Of a stretch of 64,000 nt of DNA, positions 5,081 to 64,000 are shown piece after piece. A model generated the notes under the pieces. The model was not told the origin of the DNA and searched no databases. It saw only the letters and a list, made by a program, of their open reading frames with translations. A program made the translations under genes and the position numbers. The DNA lies in assembly GCA_964016885.1 (NCBI GenBank), contig CAXHJY010000447.1:1-64000 (forward strand), written 5' to 3'. How positions within the stretch are numbered: position 1 is the stretch's first letter; every line of letters begins with the position of its first letter. Source of the DNA: Eledone cirrhosa (Eukaryota).

Positions 5081-5436
5081 TATATATCAATAAAAGATCT
5101 GAGGCCATCTTCAGTTGATTTAGGTTTATTTAAAATATGTTATACATACTTTGCTGAGGATTATCAGGCAAAAACCTATAAAAATAATGAAAGTTCCTAA
5201 AAAATCACCATGTGTCCGGCCAGCCCTCTGTATCAAGAAAAGAAAATATTTCTTGAAGAAGTTATTGATTTTTCCAAACTTAAAGGTTATTTTAGCAACT
5301 TTCATTGTTTTTATATGCTTTGCCATCTGAAGAACTCAGGCTATCATAAGTGATAATCCTCAGCAAAATATGTACAATGGATTTTAAATAAATCTGAATC
5401 AACGGAATATGGCCTCTGATCTCTTATTGATATATA
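5081..5436. mobile_element. Fold-back element (imperfect inverted arms ~120 bp) with decayed hammerhead at 5323-5380 (+)
   Basis: atatcaataaaagatctgaggccat vs atggcctctgatctcttattgatat; ccat-CTGAAGA-hairpin-(A)AAA-tatgta-ca-atgg. Confidence 0.6.
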
Positions 5437-5540: not shown

Positions 5541-5826
5541 TATATATGAATGTATGTATAGTATATTCAGCAATATACCGTATCTTTAATTAAAAATATT
5601 TGGAAGACCATTCACTATCAGTTTTAAACTATGTCACTTTCTCGCTGGTTGGCTTTGATAAATACCAACCAACGAGAAACAGCTGTCAGCCTCACTCCCA
5701 GCCTTTGCTGAAAATAAGTAAGTGACATAGTCACTACTTAAAAACTGATAGCGAATGGTCTTCTAAATGTTTTTAATTAAAGATACGGTATATTGCCAAA
5801 TATACTATACATACATTCATGTATAA
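5541..5826. mobile_element. Fold-back element (inverted arms ~95 bp), possible PLE pLTR relic
   Basis: atgaatgtatgtatagtatattcagcaatataccgtatctttaattaaaaa mirrored at 5770-5821. Confidence 0.65.
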
Positions 5827-7901: not shown

Positions 7902-8188
7902 TATATATATATATATATATACATAAACGTAAAAAATGAAACGAAATTTCATTTCCCACTCTTAGTACGACTGTTACTTAAATATAAGTATGTACACGTA
8001 CATACATATATGTATACAGACGTACAGTAGTATGTATATATATATACATGCACATATATATATATATGTACGTATGGATTCACCGAACATTTATTATAAT
8101 GCTCGGTGTGTTTGTAAACAAACATCCCATATTAAGCCTTAGTGTCTAGCAACCATCGTTGCTCGTTTGTTCAACACTGACAAAGGAA

Positions 8189-8229
8189 CGCTGTACTAGT
8201 TTCAAGCTTATTAGCTATCGTCAGCAACG
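8189..8229 (-). ncRNA. Minimal type I hammerhead ribozyme (R1)
   Basis: Reverse complement of the 8709-8749 motif. Confidence 0.85.
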
Positions 8230-8708
8230 TATACCTTCCCGCCAGATTGTTGAACGTATATACTTACCTTATGCATATTAACGGCTGAGCAGCCCAATTT
8301 GCATATCGAGTGGGTTAATTGGCCGGGTGCACCGAAAACGATAAACGGAAAAAATGAAACGAAATTTCATTTCCCACTCTTAGTACGGCTGTTACTTAAA
8401 TATAAGTATGTACACGTACATACATATATGTATACAGACGTACAGTAGTATGTATATATAAATATATAAATACATGGACACATATATATATGTACGTACA
8501 GATTCACCGAACATTTATTATAATGCTCGGTGTGTTTGTAAACAAAGAGCCGTACTAAGAGTGAGAAATGAAATTTCGTTTCATGTTTTCCGTTTATCGT
8601 TTTCGGTGCACCCCGCCGATTAACCCACTCGATATGCAAAGTGGGCCACTCAGCCGTTAATATGCATAAGGTAAGTATATACGTTCAACAATCTGGCAGG
8701 AAGGTATT

Positions 8709-8749
8709 CGTTGCTGACGATAGCTAATAAGCTTGAAACTAGTACAGCG
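8709..8749 (+). ncRNA. Minimal type I hammerhead ribozyme (R1)
   Basis: cgttg-CTGACGA-tagct aata agctt-GAAAC-ta-GTA-cagcg: intact core, 5-bp stem I, palindromic stem III (ACTAGT), GUA site. Confidence 0.85.
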
Positions 8750-8964
8750 TTCCTTTGTCAGTGTTGAACAAACGAGCAACGATGGTTGCTAGACACTACG
8801 GCTTAATACAGGATGTTTGTTTACAAACACACCGAGCACATTAATAATAGTTCTGTGAATCCATACGTACATATATATATGTGTGCATGTATGTATATAT
8901 ATATACATACTACTGTACGTCTGTATACATATATGTATGTACGTGTACATACTTATATATATAT

Positions 8965-10017
8965 TTCGTTTCTGAATTTGTTTAGCAAGATTCTTTATCT
9001 GAAAACGTGTGTTGAAACCGATATTATTATGCTTTGGGAGGGTCATGTTGCCAATAAGAAACACACTTAATAAATACCAGAGTGTAATGCTCATCAATAC
9101 AACCCATAGAGGTGAATTAGCTTACAAATTTAGAAGGGCCCTAGATAAACCTAAACTCAATATTAAGATAGTAGAAAGACCAGGTACCTCCATAATAACA
9201 CTTATTAGCAATACATATCCTTTTCAAAGACCTCCCTGTATAGATAATAAATGTATAATCTGTAAACTAAGCCCCCATATTAACTGTAAAACTAGAAATG
9301 TAGTATATAGCATAAGATGTACTGAAGGACAATGCAGAGATAAGAATATAGTGTACATAGGTGAGACAGCTCGTAGTATAGGAGAACGGATAAATGAACA
9401 CTGGTGAGAGCTTCAAGATAGAAAAGAATCATCTGTACTCCACCAACATGCTAAAATAGAACATAAAGGTAAATTAGAGAACATAGAAATAAAAATAGAA
9501 TCTACACACAGAAAAGACGCAATGTTTAGACAAATCACAGAGGCAATAAACATAAATGAACTCCAACCAAAATTAAATAGAAAACTTGAATGGAATAGCA
9601 ACATCACAACTTACAATTAAGGACAAAATGAAAACACACACACACACACATAGAACAAACAATCAACATGTAACATGTAAATAAACAAATAAATAAACAA
9701 ATATAAACACACACAGACACCCGGATGTAACACAGGCGCAAACTAAGCGCACACCACACACAAAAAGAAGATGGGGTACGACCGAACAAAGGAGAGGCAT
9801 AAAAACAAAGAAAAGAATCCCTAGTCACTGAAGAGGTCACAGAATGTGTGACGAAAGAACTTTGACAATATATGAACAACCGTCCGGTTGTGGAACCAAC
9901 CAACCAACCGAATATTTATAAATTCTTAAATTTATAAATTTAATTTATAATAAATTGGAGTGAAAGGAACTGGTGCGTGTGTTTCTTATTGGCAACATGA
10001 CCCTCCCAAAGCATAAC
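8965..10017 (+). mobile_element. 5'-truncated Penelope-like element family B (GIY-YIG plus pLTR) with inverted 5' pLTR fragment (8965-9066)
   Basis: CIDNKCIIC..CKTRNVVYSIRC..YIGETARS..ERINEH..LNRK; 9030-9066 is inverted relative to 9978-10017. Confidence 0.9.
9824..9866 (+). ncRNA. Minimal hammerhead in PLE-B pLTR
   Basis: gtca-CTGAAGA-g-gtcaca gaatg tgtgac-GAAAG-aa-CTT-tgac. Confidence 0.7.
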
Positions 10018-10118
10018 CACATATATATATAGAAACAATAATAAATTTGAAGACTAAAATCCAAAGAGAGCTCGATAAAGATAAATATATATCAAATATA
10101 TAAGAACAGTAGAGCAAA

Positions 10119-10455
10119 TATTTATTAAAATAACAGATTACGTTTTAAGCAAAGAATCGCTGCTTTCACCCTTAACGGAATCTTCTGAAACAACTTACAC
10201 ATTAAGACATACACATATAAATACATATGTTTCTGTATGTATGTTTATATATATATAAACATGTATGTTTATATATATATAAACATGTATGTATGTTTAT
10301 ATATATATTTATATATACATCTGTATGTATGTATGTTTATATTTATATATGTTTATATTTATATTTATATATTTATATAAAGAGTTTCAGAAGATTCTGT
10401 TAAGGGTGAAAGCAGCGATTCTTTGCTTAAACTTTAATCTGTTATTTTAATAAAT
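10119..10455. mobile_element. Fold-back non-coding element family D (other pieces at ~13845-13918 and 53514-53585)
   Basis: tttattaaaataacagatt...cccttaacggaatcttctgaaac mirrored at 10385-10455; HHR-like CAGAAGA...GAAA without a clear stem I. Confidence 0.65.
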
Positions 10456-10691
10456 ATATATATATATATACACATATATACATACATATATATATATTGT
10501 TATACTTGGGGAGGGTCATATTGCCAGAATTAATAACAGAACACACTCACTGTTTGGGTGGTTTTCGCTTCCCGCTTCTGTGTCTTTTATATCGGTAATC
10601 TAACTTACTCGATCCTCAATGTTGCCATTGACTGACCGATGGTCAAAAATAATACAGATACAATATAGACACAAACACATATATATAGTTT

Positions 10692-10733
10692 ATCATAAAT
10701 CTTTCGTTGCACATCTGCAACATCGTCAGTGGT
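10692..10733 (-). ncRNA. Slightly decayed minimal hammerhead in PLE-A pLTR
   Basis: acca-CTGACGA-t-gttgca gatg tgcaac-GAAAG-at-TTA-tgat; same layout as the PLE-B HHR. Confidence 0.6.
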
Positions 10734-10984
10734 GTTATTGTTTCCTCCTGTTGTATTGTATGTCTACGCCATTTTTATTCAGTCTGTCTATATATTTATT
10801 TATTTATTTGCTTGTTTGTTTATTTTATTTTGTCTTCTTTGCGCATGCGTTTGCGTGTGTGTATAGTGTTTTGTTTGCTGTGTGATGGGTGACTAGTGTG
10901 TGTGTATGTGCTTGTTGTTATTGTGCTTGTGTATGTATTTATTTATTTATCTATTTATTTATTTATTTTATTTTATTTACTTAT

Positions 10985-13346
10985 TTATACTTCTCTTAGG
11001 TCAGTGTTGCTTGTTTGGGTGTTGTTGTTATTCCATTCATTCTTTCTGTTTAGTCTTGGCCTTCTAATTTCTATTTCACTGGCCTCTCTGATTTGCCTAT
11101 CTGCTGGGTCATTTCTATGTTTAGATATTATTCTAATTTCTATGTTGTCTATGTTACCGTCATGTTGTTGTCTAGCATGTTCGTATAGTACTGAACCGTT
11201 TTTTCGTCCTTTTAGTTCCCCCCAGTGTTGGTCTATCCTTTCACCTATGCTACGAGCTGTCTCACCTATGTATGTTGTTGTCATGTTTCTGCAAGTACCC
11301 TCTGTACATCTTATGCTATAGACTACGTTTCTAGTTTTACAGTTTATCCGGGGGTTTACCTTACAAATGATACATTTCCTATTGGTACAGTGGGTTTTCT
11401 TAAAAGGGTAGGTTTTGCTGATCAGGGATTTTATAGTGGTTCCTGGCTTTTCTACCACCTTAATTTTTAAGTGGGTCTTTCTCAGGGCCTTTCTACACTG
11501 GTTAGCTAATTTCCCTCCAGGGGTAGCGTCCACAAACATGACACTCTGGTATCTCTGGTTGTCCTACCATGAGGTGGCTTTCCCTATCTTATGTCTAGCC
11601 CTATCTAAGCTATTCCATGATTTGCTCCTGTATAATGGGCAAATTCCTTTCATGTCCAGTTCTATGAGGGTCTTATACTTCTCCATGGCTCCTTCGTATA
11701 CTTTGACTCTGTCTCTTTGGTTGTAGCCAGAGAACTGCATGCGGTTGATGAAGTGTTGGATGTGTCTTTCCATTTCTGTTGGGTCGCACATGCTGGACAC
11801 ATTCTTCATTACTCGTACCAAGTCTGCGATCAGAATATTAAACTTAGCACTACTTGACATTGCTGAGTTTTTGAGTATCAGGTATTTGGAGGCCATGGGT
11901 TTAGCATAGTATGAGTGGAGAAGTTGGGCTCTCTCGTCTATAGTGTCAATCCAGAATTCTGTGTCTAATACAGGTAGTCTATTGTTAGGGTGTTTGGAAG
12001 GGAAGTCGATAGTTACAGTTATACTCTGGTGTATGGAATTAGCTATCTGCTGGATGCTTTCCATCGTGCTACGTTCTAAATCAAACTTGTTAGTGCTTTC
12101 TAGTGGGGATGTTCTTATAACTATATTGATATCGTCTACATAACGAGAGTACATGATGAGGTCTATGGAGCTCTCATTAAGGAGATCTTTAAGTCTCCTT
12201 TCCCACCATACCATGAAAAGGTTGGCCATATCACCAGCTATGCTGACGCCAATGGCTGCACCCTCATTTTGGGTGTAGATCTTCTCGTTGAACTTAAATA
12301 TGTGGCCCTTTAGGGTAGTTTTGATACTAGCCCATATTGCATGTGCGACCATTTTTCTTAACTGATCATTGTTTTGGGGGGTCCGTATAGCTTTGGTCCA
12401 CCCAATCCACCTTCCCATGGGAGTCTTTTTTGCCATTGAGGTTATGGTGGGGGGGTCTACCTCTTATGGGTCTACTAGGGCAGAAACGTCTAAGGTCATG
12501 GCTGTCTAGGTAGTCAGTGTCGTAGGTAAGTCTAAGTAGGAGGCCCAGTTCGTCTGTGTCGACGTCGCAGAACTCCACCCCACTCTCAATGATCACCTCC
12601 ACACATCTTTTCACAGCAAAATCAATGTTAATGGATGGGTACAGTGACACCACATCCATGCTGCCTATTATGCAGTTGGATAGGTTCCTGTTTTTGTTGC
12701 ACTCACTGATTCTGCTGAGGAGGTCCTCTGTACTGTCACATACATCTGGAGAAATCTTGATTATGGGGCGTATAACCATTGAGAGGAAGTAGGAGATCCT
12801 GTAGTTGCTAGCTATATTAGCTCCGCATACGGGTCTTGTTGGTGGTCCTGTTGTCGGGTCGTCGACTGTCTTGTGGTCTTTGCGGAGCCCATACAAGGGT
12901 GGTATGCCATTGTTAGACGCCTGGAAGTTTTTGGCAGTGCGTCTGCTTGGCTTTAGGATGTCAGTCCACATCATCATATTAGCGTTGAGGATTTTCTCTC
13001 TCCCATCGTGTGTTTGTTGTGCAATTTCGCTCGTGTTGGTGATGTGGGGTTGCATAGCCTTGATATAGTTCGGCATGCTATCTATTGACATCCTACCAGA
13101 CTTATCCGTGGGTAGACATACTACCTCACCATCCCTTGTGCGCTGCTTGAGGCTAACCAAGCCTTCTACAGGTTTCCTCTCAAGTTGTTGGGCCTCTGGT
13201 CTGCTCTGTCTCTTAGTATACCTGTCTACTATTTGTCTAATCTTATTTCTAGCTATGGTGAACTGTGCCTCTGTCTCGTCATCTATTTGTTGTGGTATGC
13301 AAACTCTTTTATTAAAGGGTAACCTCGTAGGATAGATATTACCCAT
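10985..13346 (-). pseudogene. PLE-A polyprotein (RT plus GIY-YIG), one frameshift at the G-run ~12450 and one TAG at 11564
   Basis: PPLYGLRKDHK, RPVC, SMDVVSLYPSI, YTQNEGAAIG, YSRYVDD, LPVLD, YAKPM, SGY, CTNRKCIIC, VVYSIRC, YIGETARS, LNRK. Confidence 0.9.
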
Positions 13347-13656
13347 CTTATATGTTTGTCAGCTGGGTTGAAAAATAGTTTCTCTAAGGGGTTGTCATTA
13401 TATCTATCGTCGTAGTAGTGTGTGTTGCTATTATTGTTATCATGGTGGTTGTTGTTGTTTCTATCATTAGCATTATTATTATTGTTATGATTGCTAGATG
13501 TATTGTTGTTTACTTCACCGTTATTGTTGTTGTTACTGCTATTTCTACCATTGTGGTTATTACACAAATATGACCCTCCCCAAGTATAACAATATTTGTT
13601 TCGACACACGATTTCATATAAAAAACCTCGCAAAACTAATTCATATATATATATAT

Positions 13657-16102: not shown

Positions 16103-17176
16103 TTTCTGTCTACTTTCTCTACTTGCATGGATTGAAAGGTTTGCAGCAGTCTGAATAAGTTCTTATTAAGAGTTACTTTCCCCATAAATGGGTAAGAAGA
16201 CCATATTTCAATGGTACATTCTATTTTTTTGCCATGGAGTATATAGCTGGATGCCCATCCCAATACCAACAACTTAGCAGGGAGTAGTAGGTGCGTTTTT
16301 TCAGGAAACCATCACAAGAGTTTTTTTATGCTCACAGCAAAACTTTAGAACCTTCTCTGCATCAACCACTTTACAGGGTGTGCTGGCTGTGTTTTATTAT
16401 GACACCAACATTTAAGAAGTTATGATGTCTCCTAGAAGACAAAAAGAATTCTCTCCACCTTTTGTCATGACCATTCCTTCAAGGTAAATGTATCCAAGAG
16501 TAGGATTTGATACGGAATGATGATCAGGAGACTGAAGGAAGAGAAATTATGAATATGAGTGGGAGGTGGGAAACAAAGGGATAGCATAGTAGGGAGGGAG
16601 ATGGACAGTGTTAGCTACATGAAATATGATGCAAAATTCAAATATGGGAGGGTTCTATTCATCAAGCGTCTGTGAGAATAAACATTCCATTTCATTAGAA
16701 ATATATACAGTATAATATAAACCACCATCATCATCTATACAACACTATCAGTCACATCATGATTCTTATGTGGGAAAATGTATTTACCATTTAGAATTTA
16801 AACCAGCTGTCTGGTCAGCATTCTCTCACCTCTTTCTATTCAAACTGGCCATAACAGGCTGCTCATACTTATGTTAAACTATTGTTCTCAAAATAAATAA
16901 TATCGAAATCCTGTAGATTTGCTATTATATGAGATAATTATGTGAAATAAAGTGTTTACCATGAAAATACAATAGTAAATAAAGAGTAATGTAAATGCTA
17001 AAGGGTTAATAGATGCTGGAATAGTGAAATTGACAAAGCTATAATTTCCCTTAGTCAAAGCATTGTTAAATACACACTCTTGGTGCAGCATATTTAGGCA
17101 CTTAGATAATACATTCGATTTGAATTTTTTCTGCATAATTTGAATGCAAATATATTTTTCAGATGTTTTGTGTTTT

Positions 17177-17358
17177 GGATTGGCAGTATCGGTAGGGGGT
17201 CGGACGCCATGCTTTCCAGCATAGTTACGTCCCTTTACAGTCTGAGTTCAAATCCCGCTGAGGCTAACTTTGCCTTTCATCCTTATGGAGTCGATAAAAT
17301 AAAGTACCAGTAATGCACTGGGAAAATTGCTGGCCTTGTGCCAAAAGTAGAAACAATT
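17177..17358 (+). mobile_element. SINE family S1
   Basis: Aligns with 1057-1241. Confidence 0.8.
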
Positions 17359-18059
17359 ATCTATAAGTGTACCTGTTTTATTATTTTCTAATTAGTTAAG
17401 ACTATAGAAAATAGAACTTATTCAGATTATTAATCCAGATTTATAATGATTATCTAATATGCTCTTAGGTATTTAATGAATTGATTTACAGTTTTATATA
17501 CCAAATTTTGTGAGTAATAAATAAGTTAATGTAAACTGATTGTTAATTGGCTGACATATATACTTAGGTTTTTAGCTATATAATTAATATATTTTCAATT
17601 TTTTGTATAACTAATTTTCAAGGTTACTGGTGTGCATGGAAGAGATTCTATGAATCGAGTGGCATGCTAATGAATGTTGTTGAAACTGAAAGGTTCATTG
17701 TAGGTTGCATATGTGGGAAATGCCATGATTGATGGAAGTAGTAGTTTTAAACTTTGCAATGGATTTTCAATCTATCTCAGGTAAATTTGCCTGTCTCAAT
17801 AGCAAAGAATTGAACTCACAAAGTAAGGTCACATAGTATAAGTTATCATATCACTTCACCAGTTTTATCTCTATATATAAGTATTATAAGGGAAGTAACA
17901 TTTCCCCAATCAGGCATCAAAATATCCTTGTGGGTTTTGATCACTGGGAGATGTATACCTTTACTATAGTATGATACATGCCATACATATATTATAACCT
18001 GTCAATTACACATTCCTATGTAAATAAAATCCATTTTGCACTACTCAATCTTTGATATG

Positions 18060-20300: not shown

Positions 20301-20460
20301 TATATATATATATATATATATATATAAGCAAAGAGTTATTTAATTTGTTGGTTATTCAACAAATGTATTTATAACAGATTCGAAGTACTCTACAGAATTT
20401 CTTCTGAAGTATAATATCACTAATATTAATAAATGGAAACTATCTTTATAAAACCATATT

Positions 20461-20522
20461 TATTTTATTATATATATTTCAAGGGTACCAACATTTTTGG
20501 TACGCTTTCATCAGATAAAATA
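20461..20522 (-). ncRNA. Type I hammerhead in inverted 5' pLTR of PLE-C
   Basis: tattttat-CTGATGA-aagcgtacca aaaatgt tggtaccctt-GAAA-tatat-ATA-ataaaata: 8-bp stem I, 9/10-bp stem II. Confidence 0.8.
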
Positions 20523-20571
20523 CAAAAGTTGTAGAGCACTTTAAACTATAAAAGATTATAAATAATTAATA

Positions 20572-22790
20572 ATGGAATTTTTAAAGTTCTCTTCATCTCT
20601 CAAGGATGTACCTTTACCTACCAATAAAGAATATTTGAAACAGCTAATAAAAAAATCTGATTCTTTCATAAGGAGAATCAGATGGCGCGCTTTCCATTTT
20701 GAAAAGAAATCGGAAAATGAAAAATATAAATCTAAATATAACTTTGATCTTATATTTAAATCCAGGAAAAATCCACCTTTCAACAAACTATTAGCTGAAT
20801 TTGAAAATGAAATAATCTCCATAATACAAAATATTAAATTTAAAAGGAGCCAATATAAAGGCCAGGAATACCTCAAAGCCTCAAAAACAAAATAGATAAC
20901 CTGAGAAAAAAACAAAGAAGATCGTCATAAAATCCGACAAAACTAACAATTTATACGGAATAGAAAATAATTTAATATTGAAAGAACTTAGGAAGAATTA
21001 TAAAAAAAAACTCTAATGAAGATCTATCAACCCTAAATAAAGAAGCTTCGGAAATTATTTACAAATTAGGTATTCAAAATAAGACTGAACCTTTCATACC
21101 AAGGAAACCAAAGATAAACATGAAGGACCACAAAAGAAATTTCGAAGTGGAACTACCAGTCAGACTTATTGCACCATCTATATCTGATTTAGGCATAATT
21201 AGCAAACATATACTAGATAGGATCATACCAGTACTTAAGCATAAATCACACCTTAATCTCTGGAACGGCACTCATGAAGTAATAGATTGGTTCGCAGACA
21301 TTAAATTAAAACATAGGAAAACATTTATACAAATGGATATTGCTAATTACTACTCCTCAATTACTCCTAACTTACTTAATAAGGCACTTATTTACGCTTC
21401 AAAATATACTGACTTATCTAGTGATGAAATAAATATCATTTTAACCGCACGTAAAACCCTAATTGAATTTAATAACCATCTCTGGACAAGAGCTGATAGA
21501 CAGAACAATTTTGATATCACAATGGGATCATCTGACTCAGCCCAAGTAACAGTCCTTGTTGGAATATTTATTCTTAATGTACTACATAGAACACTTCCAG
21601 AGATGGCCGGAGGTTTATATCGCGACAATATGTTACTTATAGTTGATAACCATAGCAATAGCGAACTTAGTAGGAAAAAGAAAATTATCATAAAATTGTT
21701 CAATAATTATAACCTTAAATTAGAAATTGAGAATAATAATAAAACTGTTAACTTCTTAGATGTCACTTTAGTTCAGGACTAATCCATAAGATTAATGAAA
21801 ACCTTCACTATGTAAGCTTCCATGCTAATCATCCTAGAAATGTCAAAAATGCTATTGTCAATAGTGTCCAGCAACGAACTTCACGCATTTCAGCCCCAAA
21901 AAATATTTTTGATAATAAGACAGAATATTACAATGACGATTACATAGAGCTGGTTACATGAATAAAATTAAATACTTAGATAACAATAACATGCAAAATC
22001 ATCCTAAAATTTACTATAATAATAATAATAAGCAATTTAGCATAAATAGTAAATCAAACAAAAGAACTAGAACTACAAGTATTATTTGGTACTCTCCCCC
22101 AATCTCAGGAGTTTAAACACCTGTAGCAAATCTATTTTTCAAAGCATTAGATAAGTGTTTTCCTAAATCCCATAGATACCACTCTATTTTTAACAGACAT
22201 ACTATAAAACTATCTTACTTTACTACTATGAACATAGCACAACATATTAATAGAGTTAATAATAGAAACTTAAATTTAAACCCAACACAATTAAACCAAA
22301 ATAACAATATTAATATTACTAATAACAGTATTAATACTAATGATAATCGTACTGTTCCTATAGACAACAACTCTAGAAAATGTAACTGTAGAAACGAAAT
22401 AAATTGCCCTTTACAGAATAATTGTCTATATAAATGCGCAGTAAAAACTAGAGATAAAATATACAACTATATGGGAGCCACTTCAACAAAATTTAAGGAA
22501 CGCTGGTATAATCACAAACATACGTTTAATAGATCAGACAAAACATTTTCAACATCACTTTCACATCTAATTTGGTACTTAAAAGACAATAATATCGACT
22601 ATTCAATCTCTTGAAGAGCGATTTCGAAAGCGCTCGCATACCGAAATATGGCACTCTCAAGAATTTGTCATTTGTGTATTGAGGAAATATTTCATATACT
22701 TACCAATCAAAACTCTAAATAAAAAGAAAGAATTATTCACCTCTTGAAAACATCGTCAATCTAAGACGTTCAGAAGTATCTATAATCTAG
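20572..22790 (+). pseudogene. PLE-C RT plus GIY-YIG polyprotein, multiple stops and frameshifts
   Basis: ORF fragments 20572-20895, 21120-21782, 22228-22614; catalytic YRDD mutated to YRDN. Confidence 0.85.
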
Positions 22791-24175
22791 AGAAAATATT
22801 ATCTATATTTCACTTGTTTACATTTTATATGTCTTCACTATGTTTTGTTGATGTTTTGTGATGTTTTTTTAAATGATATTTTTCTTTTTAAATAATATAT
22901 TTTTTAATGATATTCTTTTTAAATGAATTTTAAATGATATTTTGAAATATATCTTTTTTGTGATGGTTTTAATGATGTTTCTGAATATACTTTTGATGTC
23001 TGTAATATTTCTTCCTAATAGACTATATAGACATTGCAAAATCCATACATATAAATGCTTAACATATGCATCTAAATGCTATCTAAATACATATATAAAA
23101 GAATTTTTATCTTAGAAAATATGTAATATATGATACTATAAAATCATATATAACATTTTTTTACATATATTTTACATGTATCTTAATTAGAATATATTTT
23201 TTTAAAGTAAATTCTAGAATAAACGGTAAATATAACTTAACTATTTTAACTAAGAAATATTGTAGTTATCTTTTCCTTTATAATGTAACACGCTTACACA
23301 TTTATTCTAAATAACAACTAAACTTTACATAAATATTAACATTTTTTTGTATAATTTCGTTAACTTCGTAAATTTTGCAAATGTATTCCTATCTTGATGC
23401 AACTATTGAATGTACAAAATAATCTTCTATAATAAAATAGAACTACTTCCTTTTTCTTAAATATATATTGAAAATTTAAACAAGAAATTCATCGTAACCC
23501 TTCACATATGAAAAATATTTAAATTATCTCTCTATTAATAAAAACAGCAACATTATGAATATTTATATAAATAACCTGTTGTAATATAATAAAATAAAAT
23601 ATACTTACAACCGTAATTCTTCATAAAATATACTTATAAATATTATCTCTATAATATTAAAACTCACTATTAGAATAGACCCAATAATTAGTAGTATCTC
23701 TCACTTTTTAAAATTGATATTCATCCACTTCAACACATTTATAATTCTCATATTATATTATAGATACTACCAAAATATATAATTATATAATTAAATAAAT
23801 ATAATTATTTCACTCTCTTTGCACCATCAGTAATATGATCCATACAATTATATAATAATAATAATTGTTCCTACTTTAGGCACAAGGCCAGCAATTGTCT
23901 ATTTCTAACTATAATATACTTTTTTCTTATATTCTTTCCTTAAATTTTCTTACACCCTAATATTAATATTAACCTCTTTCTCTTCTTCCCTTAAATAATA
24001 ATCCTAATAATTATTTAAATTTACCTAGCGTCTAAATATAACGATCTTTTTCAACTTTACGTTATCTTCATTAACATATTCATCCTAAGATTTGAATTTC
24101 TTTCACTATTCAAACAGAACTTAAAACGATAAGTTCTTGTTTTTGGATATGTCACTATCTATAAAACAACTTTTG

Positions 24176-24237
24176 TATTTTATCTGATGATTGCGAACCA
24201 AATATGTGGGTACCCTTGAAATATATATAATATAATA
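24176..24237 (+). ncRNA. Type I hammerhead in 3' pLTR of PLE-C (more decayed)
   Basis: tattttat-CTGATGA-ttgcgaaccaaatatgtgggtaccctt-GAAA-tatat-ATA-atataata. Confidence 0.65.
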
Positions 24238-24619
24238 AATATGGTTTTATAAAGATAGTTTTCATTTATTAATATTATATATATATACAGTATATATGTT
24301 AGCTAGGTGTTGCTCGATACACTCGATTTTGTTACAATGTCCATCACACATTGGGTTGTATTCCAGAGTTAAAAGGCCTGTTGTGTGCAATGTGTAAATA
24401 CAGTAAGTAGGATCAAATCACTGTTGCAGCATATACAATCGTTTCAATATTGATCAGCTCAGGGTACAATCATAATGCCTGGATCCTGACTCTTCCTCAA
24501 AATCTCATGAGAAATGCAATTTTATATGTGTAAAGATATATCCAAACTCATACATATATATGTATATTTCTGTTCAAAGTCAGAGGGTGAAGGTTGTTGA
24601 TATATTTGTCTACTTTAAT

Positions 24620-26969: not shown

Positions 26970-27300
26970 TGATAAAGAAAAAAAGTTGATAGATATGAGA
27001 GGTTAGCTTGAGTGATTAAACAGTTGTGGTTACTGAAAAAGGTGGTAGTAATACCAATAATAGTTGGAGTCTTGGGAACAGTGATTAGACATTTGAGAAG
27101 TATGTTAAACAAATAGGAATTTCAATATGGATGGAACTCTTACAAAAAGCATCATTACTTAGAACAGCTCGAAACTTCCAGAGGGTACTAAAGAAATAAG
27201 GAGTGTTACCTCAGTTCCCTGGTAGTGAACAGCTAACATTGTAATACATCTCCAGTGTTAAAAACTGAGCAAAGAAACAACAACAATAATAATAATAATA
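26970..27300 (+). mobile_element. R4/Dong-like LINE 3' end (REL endonuclease C-terminus) with (AAC)/(AAT)n tail
   Basis: Manual translation: K..DRYERLA*VIKQLW..VVVIPIIVGVLGTV..ELLQKASLLRTAR. Confidence 0.7.
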
Positions 27301-27682
27301 ATTGTTTCTACTTTTGGCACAAGGCCAGCAATTATCCCAGTGTATTACTGGTACTTTATTTTATCGACCCCGTAAGGATGAAAGGCAAAGTTAACCTTGG
27401 CGGGATTTGAACTCAGACCATAAAGGGCCGTAACTCTTTGCTGCAAAGCATGGCATCCGACCCTCTACCGATACTGCCAATCCCCCAATAATAATAATAA
27501 TTGTTTCTACTTTAGGCACAAGGCCAGTAATTACCCAGTACATTACTTGTACTTTATTTTATCGACCCCGTAAGGATGAAAAGCAAAGTTAACCTCAGCG
27601 GGATTTGAACTCAGATCATAAAGGGACGTAACTATGCTAGAAAGCATGGCGTCCGACCCTCTACCGATACTGCCAATCCCCC
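27301..27682 (-). mobile_element. Two tandem S1 SINEs separated by (AAT)n
   Basis: 27301-27485 and 27500-27682 are reverse complements of 1057-1241. Confidence 0.85.
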
Positions 27683-30459
27683 AATAATAATAATAATAAT
27701 AGTTACAATGTAATTCAATTAATTTACATTGAAAAATATTAGCTTTTAGATTTCTTGATACAAACTATTTTTTTTTAATATGTCATGTTGACATAACACT
27801 TTATGCTTGATTCTTTCATATTTTTATATTTTTTCATTATTATAATTATTATAATTATGTTTGTTATCTTCTAATCATCAATCTTTACTAAGAGAAGTTT
27901 CTCAGTGAATAATAGAATAATAACAGACCATACACATGATTCTCTTCACTTTCCCTTTTTGCTATTAAAACACTGTAATAGAATTATAAATATTAAGTTG
28001 AAAACACACCAGCTTTCTTTTGTTTTTGCATTTATTTTAATATATTGTTTTGTTTTTTATGCTTACTTTTAAAACTGATATGGATTTCAGCTTATCTTTA
28101 TTAAATTTACAAGGATTGATAAATAACGATGTCTTTCGTTCATTTCTGCCTTAAGTGCTAATGAAAGATTAAAAAGGTAGGGGCTCATGTCATACTCCCA
28201 CAACATATCACCTATCTGTCTTTCATTTTCCTTCACTGATTCTGCCTCTCCTTTTCACTTTCTCACTCTCACTCATTCAAGTTCTCTTTTTTTTTCACTC
28301 CATCCTGGAGACACACACACACATTTACACATAATTTTATCTACTCATTGCTTGCTTCGTTTATCTTTCTTATCAAGAAAGCTTAACCAGATCTTGACTG
28401 AAGGGCTTTACTCTGGGATCAATGAAATAATTGCTCTTTCTATAAACACGCAGTTGAAATTTTCACTATTGTTGATAATAGCAATAACAATAGCAACAAC
28501 AACAAAAATATAAAATAAACTCTCAATAATCATAAAATCCTGTTTTTATTCATTAACATGTTTTACAGTAGTTTACTGTTTTGTAGAAATGAGATGATGA
28601 TGATGATGATAATAATAATAATATTGTTACAAACCTGAAATCTTGAAAATAAATATATAAATCATAACTAAAACTATATACTGATAATGACAATAACATT
28701 TGTTATTGTATTAATTGACAGTTATTATCTTTATTGCTATTACTATCTTCTTTATATCTGTTATCAACATCGTTGTTATCATCATCACCATCACCTTCAT
28801 CATCATAATTATATCATTTAAGTTTACAACTTTTATGTTGTAGAAATTAGTTTCAGGTGTTATTTGTATGGCTTTATAATTATTCATCTTCTCTCTCTCT
28901 CTCACTGGTTTTAGCTCTATATCTCTTGTGGTTTAAGAAATGACTACAGATTATCCCAACCCATGCAAAAAAGTCAAATACAACCCTTTCATCATCATGT
29001 TTCTCCTGAAATACACTGCCTACGATTTCCATATAATTTTTTTTTTATATAACCATGTATTTGGAAGAATTTAGCAAAATATCTAACTTTGTCATTATTA
29101 TGTTTAGAGTAACAAAATGTCTTATAGAAAATTAATATGTAATGATTTTAGATAAATATAAAATATAAACCATTTAAAACAGTTTTGTATCATAAAAGCA
29201 GACCCAGTTTTATGCAGTTTTCAATAAAATAAGTTAAATAATTATTTTAAGTAATTTTATATTTAAATTACCCAACCTCATCCCCCACCTCACACACACT
29301 CCTTTTAACATTCTAACTTCAATATTTACATGCTTGCATCTGTTGAATGGCTTTATAAATTTAAATAGCCAGTTTATATCCAGTTTTGAATAGATACAAT
29401 ATATCCATCTATTTTGTAAAAGGCTACTGAACAGGTTGGAACCAGAAAGGATAATTTGCCATATAATATTGCCTTATAATAAAACATATAATGAGTATGA
29501 AGCTTGTCATGGTGTATCTAAGGCTAGCCACTACTTTAGTAGAAAAGATGGCATAAAAGCTTTATTTTAGTTTATAATAGAAATTATTGCAGTTTGAATT
29601 TTAACTATATATCTACACTGTAGATTTAGAATATCACAATTCTCTTTTAACTCTTTACCTAATTATATATTCTTTTGCAAATATTTATTAATATTTATAA
29701 AATAGGCATTGAAAAGATAATTTCAGAATTCTATTATTAAATGTGAGAGGAGACTAGCTCATTGAATTACAGCTGATGCCCATAGTCCTAATAATGCTGC
29801 TAATCATCAAGCATTGAAAATAGTGCCCCATGCTGTCATATCAATAGTGTAACTTGTAACTATCTACGAGGACCATTAACCACATTGATCTTACTGGACT
29901 TGAAAAGCCTGTGAGAGCCATGGATACAACCTCTTCTTTCAGACCAAACTAATACAAATATAAGATTCCTCAGTTGGCAATAATAAAAAGTTAGTGACAA
30001 TATTCTTTAAAAAAAAGGTAAATGAATATCCATCAGTTTCAATGATGTCAGTACTGTTCCATTTGGTCAATCAACAGAACAGTCTCCTTGTTAAACCAAT
30101 ATACAAGTGGTTAAGTGTTTCACAGAAACATGTATCCTAAATGTAAATCTCAGGGTGATTCAGCATGACACAGTAGGTGACAGTGCTAGCCTTTTGCATT
30201 ACAATCACACTCCATTCAACTGACTTCGAGTTTCTGTCAACTAAATTTTACCCAAAAGTTTCACTCAAGGCTAGAGTAAATGTCACTTGCCCAAAATACT
30301 ATGCAATGGGATTGAACACAGGTTCTTATGATTGTGAAGCAAACTTCTTAACCATTTTGCCATGTTACATCCACACATATATTCTGTAAATTGTATAAGA
30401 ATAGGTATAAATCTATATTTAGCATGAATTATAATTGATTTTCTCACAAGAAAGCCTCA

Positions 30460-31616: not shown

Positions 31617-31688
<72 letters not shown>

Positions 31689-31689
<1 letters not shown>

Positions 31690-31803
31690 ATTGTTTCTAC
31701 ATTTGGCACCAGGCCAGCAATTACCCAGTGACTTACTGGTACTTTATTTTATCGACCCCGTAAGGATGGAAGGCAAAGTTAACCTCGGCGGGATTTGAAC
31801 TCA
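31689..31803 (-). mobile_element. Truncated S1 SINE
   Basis: Matches 27301-27415. Confidence 0.75.
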
Positions 31804-52636: not shown

Positions 52637-52711
<75 letters not shown>

Positions 52712-52910
52712 CTATCTAAGGCGGGTAAAATTCCTGAGATCCATGGACGAGTTCTCTCCAGCGGTCTCTGTCCCTCATTATCGCTGCCATATCCTGCATC
52801 TCCAACAGACCAGTGTCTGTCCTTAGGGCATCAACATATGTTAACCTTGGTCTTCCTTTTCTAGTGTGTCCATGTAGGGGCACCAAAAGGAGAACTGAGT
52901 GCAATGTCAT
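52712..52910 (-). mobile_element. RTE 3' terminal fragment, same family as 58515-59175
   Basis: [26 protein letters not shown]. Confidence 0.85.
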
Positions 52911-53514: not shown

Positions 53515-53626
53515 TTATTAAAATAACAGATTAAAGTTTAAGCAAAGAATCGCTGATTTCACCCTTAACGGGATCTTCTGAAATTGACAAAGTCAATCTG
53601 TAAACGCGTTTACAGATTTACTTTCT

Positions 53627-54671
<1,045 letters not shown>

Positions 54672-55043: not shown

Positions 55044-55782
55044 ACCGAAAACGATAAATGTAATAGAATGAAACGAAATTTTATTTCTCACTCTTAGTAT
55101 GGCACTTACTTAAATGTGAGTATGTATTTATACGTACATACGTATATGTATACAGACGTACAGTAGTATGTATATATATATACATACATGCACACATATA
55201 TATATATGCACGTATCGGTTTACCGAACATTTATTATAATGCTCGGTTTGATTGTTTGTAAACAAATAGCCTGAATTACTCCGTACAGTATTTTGGCAAC
55301 CCCGTCACCTTTTTGTTCAACACTGACACAGGAACGATGTATGTCGTTTTCGGTGCGCCCAGCCGACTGAACTCACTCGATATGCAAATTAGGCTGCTCA
55401 GCTGTTAATATGCATAAGGAAAGTATATAATTTCAGACGTTCAACCATCTGGCAGGAAGGTATACGATGCTGACGATAGCTAATAAGCTTGAAACTAGTA
55501 CATCGTTCCTGTGTCAGTGTTGAAGAAAAAGGTGACGAGGTTGCCTAAAAACTGTACGGCGTAATTCGGGCTGTTTGTTTGTTTACAAACAAACAAACCG
55601 AACATTATAATAAATGTTCGGTAAACCGATACGTGCATATATATATGTGTGCATGTATGTATATATATACATACTACTGTACGTCTGTATACATATATGT
55701 ATGTACGTATACATACATACATACTTACATTTAAGTAAGTGCCATACTAAGAGTGAGAAATGAAATTTCGTTTCATTCTATT
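55044..55782. mobile_element. Retrozyme-like element R1, second locus (inverted arms 55044-55341 minus, 55344-55782 plus)
   Basis: Homologous to 7923-8958 with a different permutation; (TA)n on both sides. Confidence 0.82.
55465..55505 (+). ncRNA. Minimal type I hammerhead ribozyme (R1)
   Basis: cgatg-CTGACGA-tagct aata agctt-GAAAC-ta-GTA-catcg; stem I covaries relative to the 8709 copy. Confidence 0.88.
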
Positions 55783-55783
55783 C

Positions 55784-55819
<36 letters not shown>

Positions 55820-56451: not shown

Positions 56452-56865
56452 CAGTATTTACGTATCGAGAAAGAGAAAAAAGGGGAGGATAGGTGATACA
56501 TATAGTTATTTGCCAAGTAGCGTATGCCAAAGGTGCTCGATACTAGTGCCGGCAGTATTAAATATTCGAAGTGTTAATATTTAGTGGGCTAGAGAGTTAG
56601 CAGAGCGTAAGCTCGTGGGAAAGTAAAAAATCGGAGAATAGACCGTTAAAACATGTTTATTTAAAACAGCACCTACGTACGTTTCGCCCAGTTGGGCTTC
56701 TCAAGGGCATAAATAATCACAAGTGTTCCTTATATTCCGAGCAATATAAGGAACACTTGTGATTATTTATGCCCTTGAGAAGCCCAGCTGGGCGAAACGT
56801 ACGTAGGTGCTGTTTTAAATAAACATGTTTTAACGGTCTATTCTCCGATTTTTTACTTTCCCACG
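56452..56865. mobile_element. Fold-back element with 123-bp near-perfect arms (56614-56865, 6-nt loop) and a variant hammerhead at 56770-56809
   Basis: tgcc-c-TTGAGAA-gccca gc tgggc-GAAAC-gtac-GTA-ggtg, followed by aataaa. Confidence 0.75.
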
Positions 56866-58200: not shown

Positions 58201-58428
58201 TTCTTCTCACAATGGTCTCATGTTTTTAAGTGACTTTTAAAGAACTGGCCTCCTAAATATTGATTTATGTCTTTTTTAAACTATAGATTTTTCTAGCTCC
58301 TTGTAAATATTAGCTAATCTAGTGTTTGATCATGTTTTTTCGATCAAATTGTCTCCTCTATATCTGCACTGCATCTTCCAATGCATTGAGTATTCTCATG
58401 ATTTCTGGTCTCCCTGATCCCAGCAATA

Positions 58429-58514
<86 letters not shown>

Positions 58515-58519
<5 letters not shown>

Positions 58520-59175
58520 AGACTAAAACAAAATATCTGGTAGAGATTGTTGAGAAGCCAGAGGAGATCACTAATGTAGGCGGGAAGCCGCTAGAATTGG
58601 TTGAGGACTTCCTGTATTTGGGAGCAAAGATTGGGAATACGGAAGATGATGTGGTTGAGAGGAAGAGCAAAGCCTGGGCGGCGTGCCACAGCTTGAGATC
58701 GGTGTGGAAGTCGGACCTTCGTAAAGACCTGAAAATCCGTCTCTTCATTGCTGTAGTGGAGTCTGTGCTGCTGTACGGGTCTGAGACTTGGAGACTGACC
58801 AAGAAACTCACTCAGATGGTGGATGGGTGCTACACGAGAATGCTGAGGATGGCTCTGAACATTAATCAGTATACACTGAGGATGAAAAACTCAGAGCTGT
58901 ATGGGAGCCTCCCAAAAGTCAGCTCAAAAGTGACACAGAAGAGACTGAGGTTGGCTGGACATGCTCACCGATATCCAGAGTTGACATTGCACTCAGTGTT
59001 CTTGTGGGAGCCCCTACATGGACACACTGGAAGAGGAAGACCAAGGTTAACGTATGTTGATGCCCTAAGGACAGAAACTGGTCTGTTGGAGACGCAGGAC
59101 ATGGCAGCGATAATAAAGGACAGAGACCGCTGGAGAGAACTCGTCCATGAATCTCGGGAATTTTACCCGCCCTAG
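58515..59175 (+). mobile_element. 5'-truncated RTE LINE next to a (CT)n tract
   Basis: VEDFLYLG, VLLYGSETW, YTRMLRMAL, RLRLAGH, GRPRLTY. Confidence 0.88.
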
Positions 59176-59410: not shown

Positions 59411-60211
59411 TGCCAACACAATCATAAACTAGAAACCACAATAGATGGGATTCGATCCAATACTATAACTTCCCAGACATAACATTTGAAAACTAAGCGT
59501 CACTAGATAGTTTAAAGTACCTTTCTTACAACCATATTAGGATGCCAATATGTATAACTAGCATACCTTATCTTGCAAATTTAGCCATTTATCTACCCTT
59601 TATCTCAATTGCATCATAAATAATCAAATTACTTAACCAATCAAATGCAACCCACTGCCTCATGGAAGCCATAAATAACCCACCAGTCTATCAACATCAA
59701 AGGACGAACTCTTTACCAATCAGATGCAAGAGAAGCTGACAATGTAAAGACATACCTACATAGAATCTAAGAACGCACTCAATATGTCACCATCTCTTTC
59801 CTTCACATCTAGTATCATTTATTTTATTCTATTTCATAACATACTTTATATATCTCATTTTTTATTCTTCACATTCATTATATTATTCTATCTTGAATTT
59901 TTCACATCTCATATATCACTCCTACAACAAGTTTATTGCCCACCAAACATGTGAGTTGCTAAATTTATTTTAATTTTCATTTGATGTTTATATGATTTAA
60001 TATAAAATCGTATTGCTGATTCCGAAATCAGTGTTTTGAAAATTTGCCTAGTATAAGCAGTATTTAAAACCAAGTTTCCCAATAAGATTGATACCGATTT
60101 TAAAACATAATCAGTTGCATACTAGACAATGAAACATATGTTAATGCTTGGAATAAAACCCTATTGTATCGCTTACCGTGTTAATCATCATTCATTATAT
60201 ATATATATATA

Positions 60212-60590
60212 TAACCTTGATCACCTTGACCGACCAGTCTGTCGGGTGCCATTCGCCGCCGCTGGTCACAGCACGTTGCTGTTTTAGCCATACGATGACG
60301 CCATCCCACTGGCTGGGCGGGCAGGCCATAAGTCTAAAGTCTGTCTTAAGCCAGAAGGCTCATTTAGCCGGTCTTTATCCTGGTTTCATGGCGTGAAGCG
60401 ACTGAGAGTACAAGACTCCCCCCCCCCCCCTTGACAGGACGCCAGTCCATCGCAGGGTTAAACCTCCAGCTATTTCTGGTACTCATATTCAGCTAAGTAA
60501 ACTGGAGCAACGTGAAATAAAGGGTCTTACTCAAGGAAACAACACATCACTCGGTCCGAGAATTGAACTCACAACCTTTCGATTTCAAGC
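60212..60590 (-). mobile_element. tRNA-derived SINE with conserved central domain (V/Meta-like cctgcgatggactggcgtcc)
   Basis: Head shared with S2 (6350-6445); distinct 3' part. Confidence 0.65.
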
Positions 60591-60631
60591 TTATATATAT
60601 ATAGAAGTGGTTACACAACAGGTGCCACATC

Positions 60632-60671
60632 CCGAGCTGAAGATCCGCGAAGGTGAAACAATTGTTCTCGG
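60632..60671 (+). ncRNA. Minimal type I hammerhead at the apex of a fold-back (element 60602-60770)
   Basis: ccgag-CTGAAGA-tcc gcgaa ggt-GAAAC-aatt-GTT-ctcgg; flanked by a perfect 20-bp inverted repeat 60602-60621/60685-60704. Confidence 0.78.
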
Positions 60672-60785
60672 TATGGTGAACTAACTGTTGTGTAACCACT
60701 TCTACCTAACTCGTCCCTTGGACTGAGTGCTCTACCACTACGGATATTACCTTCCAGTGTTCCACCACTAATATATATATATATA

Positions 60786-62283
60786 TTTCGTTTCTGAATT
60801 TGTTTAGCAAGATTCTTTATCTGAAATCGTGTGTTGAAACCGATATTGTTATACTTTGGGAGGGTCATGTTGCCAATAAGAAACACACGCACCAGTTGCT
60901 TTCACTTCAATTTATTATAATAAATTTATAATAAATTTATAAATTTCTGGTTGGTTGGTTGGTTCCACAACCAGATAGTTGTTTATATATAGTCATAGTT
61001 CTTTTGTCACACACTCTGTGACCTCTTCAGTGACTGGGGATTCCTTTCTTTGTTTCTGTGCCTCTCCTTTGTTCTGTCCTACGCCATTTTGTTTCTGTGT
61101 GTGTGTTGTGACTCAGTCTGCGCATGCGCCACATCCGGGTGTCTGTGTGTGTTTATGTTCATTTATTTATTTGTTTATTTACATGTTACTGGTTGGTTGT
61201 TTGTTCTATGTGTGTATGTGTTTTCATTTTGTCCTTAATTGTAAGTTGTGATGTTGCTGTTCCACTCATATTTTCTATTTAATTTTGGTTGTAATTCTTT
61301 TATGTTTATTGCCTCTGTAATTTGTCTAAACATTGCGTCTTTTCTGTGTGTAGATTCTATTTTTATTTCTATGTTCTCTAATTTACCCTTGTGTTCTATT
61401 TTTGCATGTTAGTAGAGTACATATGATTCTTTATTATCTTGAAGGTCTCGCCAGTATTCATTTATCCGTTCCCCTACACTACGAGCTGTCTCACCTATGT
61501 ACACTATATTTTTGTCTCTACATTGTCCTTCAGTACATCTTATGCTATATATAACATTTCTAGTTTTACAGTTAATATGGGGGCTTAATTTACAGATTAT
61601 ACATTTCTTATCTTTACAGGGATGTCTTTGAAAAGGGTATGTATTGCTAATAAGTGTTTTTATGGAGGTACCTGGTCTTTCTACTATCTTACTATTGTGT
61701 TTATGTTTATCTAGGGCCCTTCTAAATGTGTAAGCTAATTCACCTCTAGGGGTTGTATCGATGAACATTACACTCTGGTATTTATTGCTATCATACCATG
61801 AGTTTATTCTATTAGCCTTGTTCCTAGTTCTTTCTATTCTATTCCAAAATTTGCTCCTATACACGGGGCAGTTCCCATTTATGTCATTATTTACCATTTT
61901 TTCCCATTTGGTTCTGGCTCCTCTATACACTCTGATTTTATCTCTCTGATTGTAGCCAGAGAACTGCATACGGTGGATGAAGTGTTGTATGTGTCTCCCT
62001 AGTTCTTCGGGGTTGCACATGCGGGACACATTTATCATCACCCGTACCAAATCCGCAATCAGTATGTTGATTTTGGTATGGTCCGAAACGGCCGAGTTTC
62101 GGTGGATCAGATGTTTGGAAGTCATGGGTTTGGCATAATGGGAATGGAGGATTTGTTTTTTGTTATTAATGGTATCTAACCAGAGCTCTGTGTCTAGTAC
62201 AGGTAATCGATGGTTGGGGTGTTTACTTGGGTAGTCTATAGTAACTCTAATGCTCTGGTGGATGGAGTTTGCTATTTGCTGTC
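60786..62283 (-). mobile_element. 5'-truncated PLE family B, second copy (RT thumb, GIY-YIG, pLTR with decayed HHR at 60991-61035)
   Basis: ORF 61409-62329 (QQIANSIH, LPVLD, YAKPM, CKDKKCIIC, YIGETARS); highly similar to 9067-10017. Confidence 0.9.
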
Positions 62284-62295
62284 TGATTTTGAGTT

Positions 62296-62370
62296 TATCT
62301 CCTGATGATCCCAACTCTGGATAATTCATATTTGGATGTCCTAAATAAGGAAGAAACCATGGTAGAGATA
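62296..62370 (+). ncRNA. Type I hammerhead (R2 copy 1)
   Basis: tatctc-CTGATGA-tcc[long loop]ggaa-GAAAC-catg-GTA-gagata; perfect 6-bp stem I, palindromic ACCATGGT. Confidence 0.8.
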
Positions 62371-62960
62371 TAATTACGGTATGTGCGCATTTCTTATGAG
62401 TTTAATTTTACTACTAATTGTGTGTGGTTGATGGTATATTTGGTCGGATTCTGCATGCTGCCGAAATGTTTGATAAATAATGGAACGGGGCTGCCGCGAA
62501 GAGGCTACGATCAATTGTTTGTCAGAGATTTCCCCGTAAGAAAATTTATTCTTAAAGCTTGCTAGATTTTATTTTGTATATGGCTAATTATGCTAATTAG
62601 AAGAAGAAATAGTATATATTTTAATATCTGATGATTCTATAGACATGATTTATGATATAATGCTCTGATTTTTTTTATTTTAATTTATTAATTCTTCATT
62701 GAGCTTAAAAGTGAACAGTTGCAACATATATATATATAATTTTATGTATGTGATAACCTTTATATTTAATAATCTCCCAATTGGTTGAGATTAAATTTGG
62801 CGATATATGGCTGCGCTTTCTAGCAGCAAGCCTACCCGCCGTAAGCAACCAATCACACGCTTTCTCTCTGGCTGGTACACAGCTACGTAGCGATTTTAGC
62901 CATTTTTGAATCTAAATTTGGCGCGATCGGTTAGAAAAACTAAATGTCTGATTTTGAGTT

Positions 62961-63035
62961 TATCTCCTGATGATCCTAACTCTGGATAATTCATATTTGG
63001 ATGTCCTAAATAAGGAAGAAACCATGGTAGAGATA
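62961..63035 (+). ncRNA. Type I hammerhead (R2 copy 2)
   Basis: Same motif 665 nt downstream. Confidence 0.8.
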
Positions 63036-63389
63036 TAATTACGGTATGTGCGCATTTCTTCTAAGTTTAATTTTACTACTAATTGTGTGTGATTGATGGT
63101 ATATTTGGTCGGATTCTGCATGCTGCCGAAATGTTTGATAAATAATGGAACGGGGCTGCCGCGAAGAGGCTACGATCAATTGTTTGTCAGAGATTTCCCC
63201 GTAAGAAAATTTATTCTTAAAGCTTGCTAGATTTGATTTTGTATATGGTTAATTATGCTAATTAGAAGAATAAATAGTATATATTTTAATATCTGATGAT
63301 TCTATAGACATGATTTATGATATAATGCTCTGATTTTTTGATTTTAATTTATTAATTCTTCATTGAGCTTAAAAGTGAACAGTTGCAAC

Positions 63390-64000
<611 letters not shown>

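Follow-up and report, generated by a model that had tools for sequence, protein, structure and literature searches.

Animal non-LTR retrozymes are described in bioRxiv 10.64898/2026.07.22.740005 as non-coding elements with units of 51-972 bp, of which at least two consecutive ones carry complete type I hammerhead motifs. Their origin from Penelope-like elements (PLEs) has already been argued in print. What mobilises animal retrozymes and how their RNA is primed are treated as open questions in that preprint and in PMC7229834. Among PLEs, a Cx3Cx2C linker has been assigned to the Neptune and Nematis clades and linked to (TA)n targeting (PMC8557442). PLE hammerheads have been described as a design that pairs as a dimer through stem III, with a G10.1-C11.1 pair and an extra base between positions 9 and 10.1 typical of the minimal form (PMC4209133). 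The hammerhead of a green-anole PLE needs protein to cleave, and insertion in vitro proceeds without it (PMC11167929); of nine Xenopus dimers tested, only one cleaved itself (bioRxiv 10.64898/2026.07.22.740005).

We have analysed a window of 64,000 nucleotides of Eledone cirrhosa DNA (contig CAXHJY010000447.1, positions 1 to 64,000) that contains a non-coding, hammerhead-bearing element joined head to head to a truncated PLE of another family. The element is better read as 1.67 head-to-tail copies (1110 nt) of one 665-nt unit than as two LTRs and a spacer. Its features are the following:

60787-62281, minus strand: 5'-truncated PLE of another family ('A'), with the end of the reverse transcriptase (RT), thumb, Cx3Cx2C linker and GIY-YIG.
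62280-62281, no strand: 2-nt overlap (TG) at the head-to-head joint with the family-A PLE, read from the sequence.
62280-62725, plus strand: copy 1 of the unit, 5'-truncated and without the ~206-nt spacer part, from the repeat comparison and the joint 62944->62280 in other copies.
62296-62370, plus strand: type I hammerhead motif 1 by pattern match, predicted cut after 62364. Its parts are stem I (62296-62301/62365-62370), the core CTGATGA (62302-62308), the stem II region (62309-62352), GAAA (62353-62356) and the palindrome ACCATGGT (62356-62363).
62365-63029, plus strand: predicted 665-nt monomer between both predicted cut sites, by arithmetic from the repeat spacing.
62726-62738, plus strand: (AT)6 run inside the element, where the units join, in register with the element 3' end; at 13 nt the longest alternating A/T run of the unit.
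62739-62944, plus strand: the 'spacer', the CpG-rich 5' part of copy 2, putatively promoter-like.
62945-63389, plus strand: 3' portion of copy 2, sharing 98% identity with copy 1 in the repeat comparison.
62961-63035, plus strand: type I hammerhead motif 2 by pattern match (core 62967), predicted cut after 63029.
63390-64000, no strand: imperfect (TA)n array at the element 3' end, running past the window end.

Within-window self-comparison of 62280-62735 with 62945-63400 gave 98.0% likeness over 456 nt at a start-to-start distance of 665, in agreement with an earlier note on this DNA that had reported two near-identical repeats of ~450 bp, 665 nt apart. Nine differences lie upstream of the TA run, and the tenth listed falls inside it. 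The same note had treated 'repeat' and 'spacer' as separate parts, a division that we abandon, as both belong to one tandem unit (G+C 0.30-0.39).

In order to search for other copies, as had been proposed there, four public runs were aligned to 61900-62944, namely X1 and X2 from a single sample of organism A, X7 with raw RAD reads of the same organism, and X4 from organism B, and copies were found in all of them. Aligned were 2669 contigs from X1, 2830 from X2 and 120 from X4 and 76706 reads from X7, mostly on the PLE part, and all 30 bins of the interval were covered in four of four runs. The joint of spacer to repeat (62944->62280) was likewise present in every run, with a contig depth, which does not equal copy number, of 173 in X1 and 403 in X2 versus 3.5-14 in the listed long contigs. 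The other joint, from the repeat end through the TA run to the spacer start, is present in at least four X1 contigs, whose loose end after 62735 resembles the spacer start, and in one X4 contig among those listed, which spans 62577-62856; since this joint recurs, the end of the unit leads back into its start. Within the unit, single variants reached up to 62 contigs each among the variants listed, and copy 2 carries the family-majority letter at five of the nine inter-copy differences, among those listed in the public runs. Apart from the loose end at 62745, the seven X1/X2 loose ends listed inside the unit from 62343 on resemble a diverged unit by eye. Since X1 and X2 hardly ever show the letters of copy 1 at 62396, 62398 and 62584, their contigs stem mostly from other copies. 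Because many variant copies exist and both joints are seen in other copies or alleles, the element represents 1.67 copies of a unit from a multi-copy family that keeps both unit joints, and not a one-off duplication; the variety of variants points to dispersal over separate loci. A single-copy duplication, which had been named as one outcome that would overturn the retrozyme reading, is excluded by the many variant copies and by both joints in public runs, and ORF-linked copies, the other such outcome, were absent from the 24 of 798 loose-end rows listed.

Both repeats read TATCTC-CTGATGA-[44 nt]-GAAA-CCATG-GTA^GAGATA, in type I order, with six Watson-Crick base pairs in stem I. Of the hammerhead claimed for each repeat, the motif, stem I, the palindrome and the 44-nt stem II region were found in both, but Rfam gave no hammerhead match in the element, either at the gathering score or at E<=5; over the window there was none at the gathering score, and the two matches at E<=5 are chance ones that lie elsewhere. 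A strict descriptor that required the core, GAAA, a palindromic stem III and six Watson-Crick stem I pairs hit four sites in the real window, two of which are these motifs, versus 0 in 200 dinucleotide shuffles, both strands being scanned. The palindromic 15.2-16.2/loop 3 of PLE minimal hammerheads is supplied by ACCATGGT. Stem II is non-canonical in both copies, with no G10.1-C11.1 pair, no 5' bulge, a U directly after the CUGAUGA core and an unpaired A before GAAA; its base is UCCU/AGGA in copy 2 and only 3 bp in copy 1. Many other copies have an extra A following the core (48 of 100 X7 reads). By folding, stem III of the monomer consists of 2 bp with a CAUG loop, and two copies can pair through ACCAUGGU in a dimer stem III duplex of -11.2 kcal/mol. 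For copy 2, a fold compatible with the hammerhead is 2.1 kcal/mol less stable than the minimum, and the constrained optimum of copy 1 mispairs stem III. In the 1121-nt transcript, the predicted probability is 0.013 or less for stem I and 0.07 for the stem III dimer, and the active fold is not dominant. With an off-type stem II and such a fold, self-cleavage would be possible but probably weak.

Folding of the 665-nt monomer, also proposed earlier as a check, gave z=-2.6 versus only 20 shuffles and a branched instead of a rod-like shape. Back-junction reads at GTA/GAGATA were rejected as a test for circles because the circle joint reads the same as the genomic 63029/63030. A second, type II hammerhead was considered by eye around CTGATGA at 62629 and rejected: it has no stem I, copy 2 alters GAAA and other copies alter the core. 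A metagenome scan for the hammerhead pattern returned two loci, both in coding sequence and both chance matches that share no more than 15 nt. A search of viral contigs gave 0 matches.

The CpG-richer spacer with CCAAT motifs that had been noticed earlier was borne out. The CpG observed/expected ratio is 1.26 in the spacer versus 0.87-0.89 in the repeats and 0.46 in the window, and CCAAT at 62777 and 62849 is accompanied by a reverse CCAAT at 62780. Three or more CCAAT on either strand occur in the shuffled spacer with P=0.01, and AACCAATCA at 62847-62855 is an NF-Y-like CCAAT context (P=0.02 by shuffling). We infer a promoter-like block here. Its folding is unremarkable (z=-1.3). Neither did we find a credible ORF, again as claimed: the longest ATG-started frame of the circular unit has 44 aa, all five stop-to-stop frames of 63-69 aa that were scanned lacked a Pfam match at cut-off, and tblastn of the unit versus the window's PLE peptides and 13 homologues gave nothing better than E=0.15. 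Where an autonomous EN+ PLE has an RT and GIY-YIG ORF between its pseudo-LTRs (pLTRs), this element has a 206-nt non-coding spacer, and the adjacent ORF is antisense, with its own unrelated pLTR. A 22-codon frame starting in the hammerhead core was rejected because common insertions break it in other copies. No SECIS-like structure was found in the AT-rich end by eye, and ARAGORN on 59900-64000 predicted 0 tRNAs.

The minus-strand PLE to the left of 62280 was absent from the earlier note. It comprises 290 codons with a stop at 61409-61411, has 13 homologues at 41-53%, and by its linker is of Neptune/Nematis type. The pLTR of this PLE is a separate one, in which a different hammerhead (core 61030) is degenerate, and its tail runs out in (TA)8 at 60771-60786. 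Beyond 62281, at least 24 (X1), 28 (X2) and 11 (X4) contigs from other copies of the ORF read GATGCT..., and this PLE is therefore 5'-truncated there. Its hammerhead (61006-61036, minus strand) has AAAA instead of the GAAA of the copy at 9828, and so is likely inactive. About 100 nt upstream of the hammerhead in two families stands GCGCATGCG, which we take to be an NRF1-like motif. The order of the locus is (TA)n, left-pointing arm, right-pointing arm, (TA)n, and the retrozyme arm and the PLE arm have no common sequence. This mixed-family head-to-head joint is the one unusual feature of the locus; no report of mixed-family head-to-head PLE/retrozyme insertions was found in the literature searched, which took in few subscription papers. 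The fold-back self-priming offered for inverted arms in PMC3846280 cannot be the source of a mixed-family joint.

Further elements occur in the window. Same-family arms lie head to head with both 3' ends in (TA)n at 8964-10020, 10498-13642 and 20327-24275. The first two are PLEs whose linker is of the same type as that of the family-A neighbour, to which they show ~90% and 71% identity, and each bears a 60-70-nt tail on one arm only. The third, a near-full-length but decayed PLE, belongs to a third family and has an inverted pLTR arm; its hammerheads (20514, minus, and 24184, plus) have a long stem II and the palindrome ATATATAT, and a related solo hammerhead is found at 19976 (plus). At 53515-54533 lies a partial tandem with a 601-nt unit and 308-nt repeats 96.8% alike, ending in (TA)n, with a short inverted arm from the family at 10075-10457, which makes another mixed head-to-head pair. 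No hammerhead core was found in this tandem, which from that absence is possibly Naiad-like. A small non-coding family with a unit of ~418 nt forms tandem and inverted arms between TA runs at 7921-8953 and 55044-55790; it has a minimal hammerhead CTGACGA...GAAACTAGTA with the palindrome ACTAGT (cores at 8200, minus; 8714, plus; 55470, plus) and, to judge from its letters, is a second retrozyme-like family. Palindromic or inverted-repeat elements of ~100-350 nt were seen at 60602-60704, 56614-56865, 5081-5436 and 5541-5825. A LINE-type ORF, possibly RTE-like, is represented by its 3' part at 58402-59175 (Pfam DUF6451, below cut-off), with an inverted piece at 52711-52908. A ~190-nt SINE-like repeat, presumably resembling repeats of octopod genomes, recurs at 1057-1277, 17176-17370, 27268-27697 and 31677-31803.

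The internal TA run had been described as lying exactly where the second repeat ends in the genomic (TA)n, and the coordinates agree (62726-62738 versus a (TA)n start at 63390). The element's 3' end thus falls on the longest alternating run of the unit, with 10 letters common to end and flank. Four of five other element ends in the window, as called by the analyst, share 4-6 letters with the flank, and only 1.5-6% of the positions of those elements begin a run of at least four alternating A/T. Priming through the unit's own (UA)6 on (TA)n is plausible from these letters. A green-anole PLE begins its cDNA at a site without homology to the target (PMC11167929). At other insertion ends, target remnants of 5-8 units are common (six of nine cases), so the internal run may be a once-captured remnant. 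The 3' (TA)n array, which runs past the window end, could also be a tail rather than the target.

The unit shares its layout with the pLTRs of the window's coding PLEs: a CpG block upstream, a hammerhead and an end in (TA)n. In those pLTRs the hammerhead stands 92-244 nt from the 3' end in (TA)n, and the upstream block holds 10 CpG in 200 nt in the unit versus 4-12 in the window's other elements. A comparison with six pLTR or unit stretches of this window, the neighbour's included, gave no similarity above shuffles. We consider it reasonably probable that the non-coding 665-nt unit is a non-autonomous derivative of a PLE pLTR, copied into (TA)n by a PLE reverse transcriptase-endonuclease. Tandem source copies would be transcribed from the CpG/CCAAT block, and the hammerheads, with 2 bp in the monomeric stem III, would cut weakly, mainly as dimers via ACCAUGGU and perhaps with protein help. 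The PLE enzyme would nick (TA)n, and cDNA would begin at (UA)6, the longest A/U alternation of the unit, likely aided by pairing. From 63389 it would proceed leftwards for 1110 nt through both cut sites; as a linear monomer primed at (UA)6 offers only ~360 nt, a circular or an uncut multimeric template would be expected, of the kind proposed in PMC4209133 and PMC7229834. The cDNA end would then be joined over 2 nt to the truncated, opposite-pointing PLE arm, likely in the same event. Copy 1 is without the upstream block, so the locus could yield a monomer only by read-through, and it is more likely a product than a source of retrozyme RNA. Against this pLTR-derivative explanation stand the lack of a parent pLTR among the six window stretches, the off-type stem II, the low predicted probabilities of stem I and of the stem III dimer, and at least three X1 contigs with unlike letters before 62745; so do the single self-cutting dimer among nine Xenopus ones, the green-anole cDNA start without target homology and the target remnants of 5-8 units at other ends. 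PMC3846280 also reports no cross-mobilisation between the two PLE types in a rotifer.

For the joint alone, and compatibly with that explanation of the unit, it is quite possible that the retrozyme and the family-A PLE arrived separately. Either an older PLE copy took up the retrozyme, which brought a (TA)n tail derived from its (UA)6, or a deletion fused two insertions that lay side by side. The arms without common sequence fit such a history, and the 2-nt overlap also fits end-joining deletions, which are common in PLE copies according to PMC3846280; the (TA)n runs past the window end, and the PLE may continue beyond it. However, the geometry is that of the same-family head-to-head insertions in the window, with a tail on one arm only, a second mixed arm pair exists at 53515-54533, and the rough ages are alike (at least five private changes in 456 nt of copy 1 versus at least two in the PLE arm over ~380 nt). 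The joint could also have been made by a single PLE reaction on two RNAs: a Neptune/Nematis-type enzyme would have cut both (TA)n strands and copied its own RNA and a circular retrozyme, with 1.67 turns round the 665-nt circle from a built-in (UA)6 primer site and subsequent cDNA joining. We hold this one-event, circle-primed course to be doubtful because a later deletion or nested insertion can also yield a mixed joint.

The unit itself could instead be the partial-tandem pLTR of an autonomous PLE family, the ORF being absent from a truncated insertion in which RT restarted at the same 3' site and left two short copies. A partial tandem with an inverted neighbour is the standard PLE insertion form in PMC8557442, the window's coding PLEs carry long-stem-II, palindromic-stem-III hammerheads (20514, minus; 24184, plus), and at least three X1 contigs have unlike letters before 62745. 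This reading is nevertheless unlikely, given a joint of repeat end, TA and spacer that recurs in other copies or alleles and closes the unit, no exit into an ORF in the 24 of 798 loose ends listed, and no protein trace versus the window's PLE peptides or the 13 homologues. Highly improbable is a single pLTR-like copy duplicated in place by unequal crossing-over at the TA run, a small satellite with no multimeric or circular RNA, for although the copies are 98% alike, both are without insertions common elsewhere (62307, 62328) and local pLTR amplification has been proposed in bioRxiv 10.64898/2026.07.22.740005, the same joint occurs in other copies or alleles under two organism labels, and X1/X2 hardly ever carry the letters of copy 1 at 62396, 62398 and 62584, so that their contigs mostly represent other loci.

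As a family, the pLTR-derived unit that we favour is one more animal retrozyme in a described class and a modest gain. The mixed head-to-head joint bears on the open question of which autonomous element mobilises animal retrozymes. If the joint is one event, it would name the family-A PLE as the mobilising partner, and if that is true, mixed head-to-head insertions could name the autonomous driver of an animal retrozyme without shared sequence. The internal (UA)6 makes a sharp prediction of the cDNA start point.

Among known systems, the EN-minus PLEs Athena and Coprina (PMC8557442) resemble this element in having short target-complementary repeats beside a hammerhead, but they attach to telomeric overhangs and encode RT. 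Plant LTR retrozymes (PMC4918200) also have two hammerheads 600-1000 nt apart and no coding capacity, but their type III hammerheads, true LTRs, PBS/PPT, 4-bp target duplications and G+C above 55% are all absent here, where the element order is type I and G+C is 0.30-0.39. The retrozyme assignment made earlier stands for a retrozyme-type family with many variant copies and recurrence of both joints, but its plant-type LTR-spacer-LTR arrangement gives way to type I hammerheads and a head-to-tail unit. The pLTRs of EN+ PLEs of Neptune/Nematis type (PMC4209133, PMC8557442, PMC11167929, PMC3846280) share with the element a palindromic stem III hammerhead, a partial tandem, 5' truncation, an inverted neighbouring arm, 3' ends in (TA)n and a short overlap at the 5' joint; they differ in that this unit has no ORF and closes on itself, and that its inverted arm comes from another family and not from the same RNA. 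Animal non-LTR retrozymes (PMC7229834; bioRxiv 10.64898/2026.07.22.740005) differ from it in that the 665-nt unit exceeds the 170-400-nt RNAs of PMC7229834, its 44-nt stem II region has no G-C closing pair, it ends in (TA)n and is fused to a PLE arm, and it is without a matching parent pLTR in the window. They agree with it in their non-coding units, arranged head to tail and each holding a single type I hammerhead, in low G+C, in the absence of a PBS/PPT-type LTR layout and in co-occurrence with PLEs, and 665 lies inside the range of unit lengths of 51-972 bp. Tandem type I motifs (1.67 units, both cores complete), no coding capacity and multiple copies with kept joints were all found in the present element. 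With its layout matching that of the window's PLE pLTRs, the unit most likely represents a new family within a known and already described kind, the animal non-LTR retrozyme.
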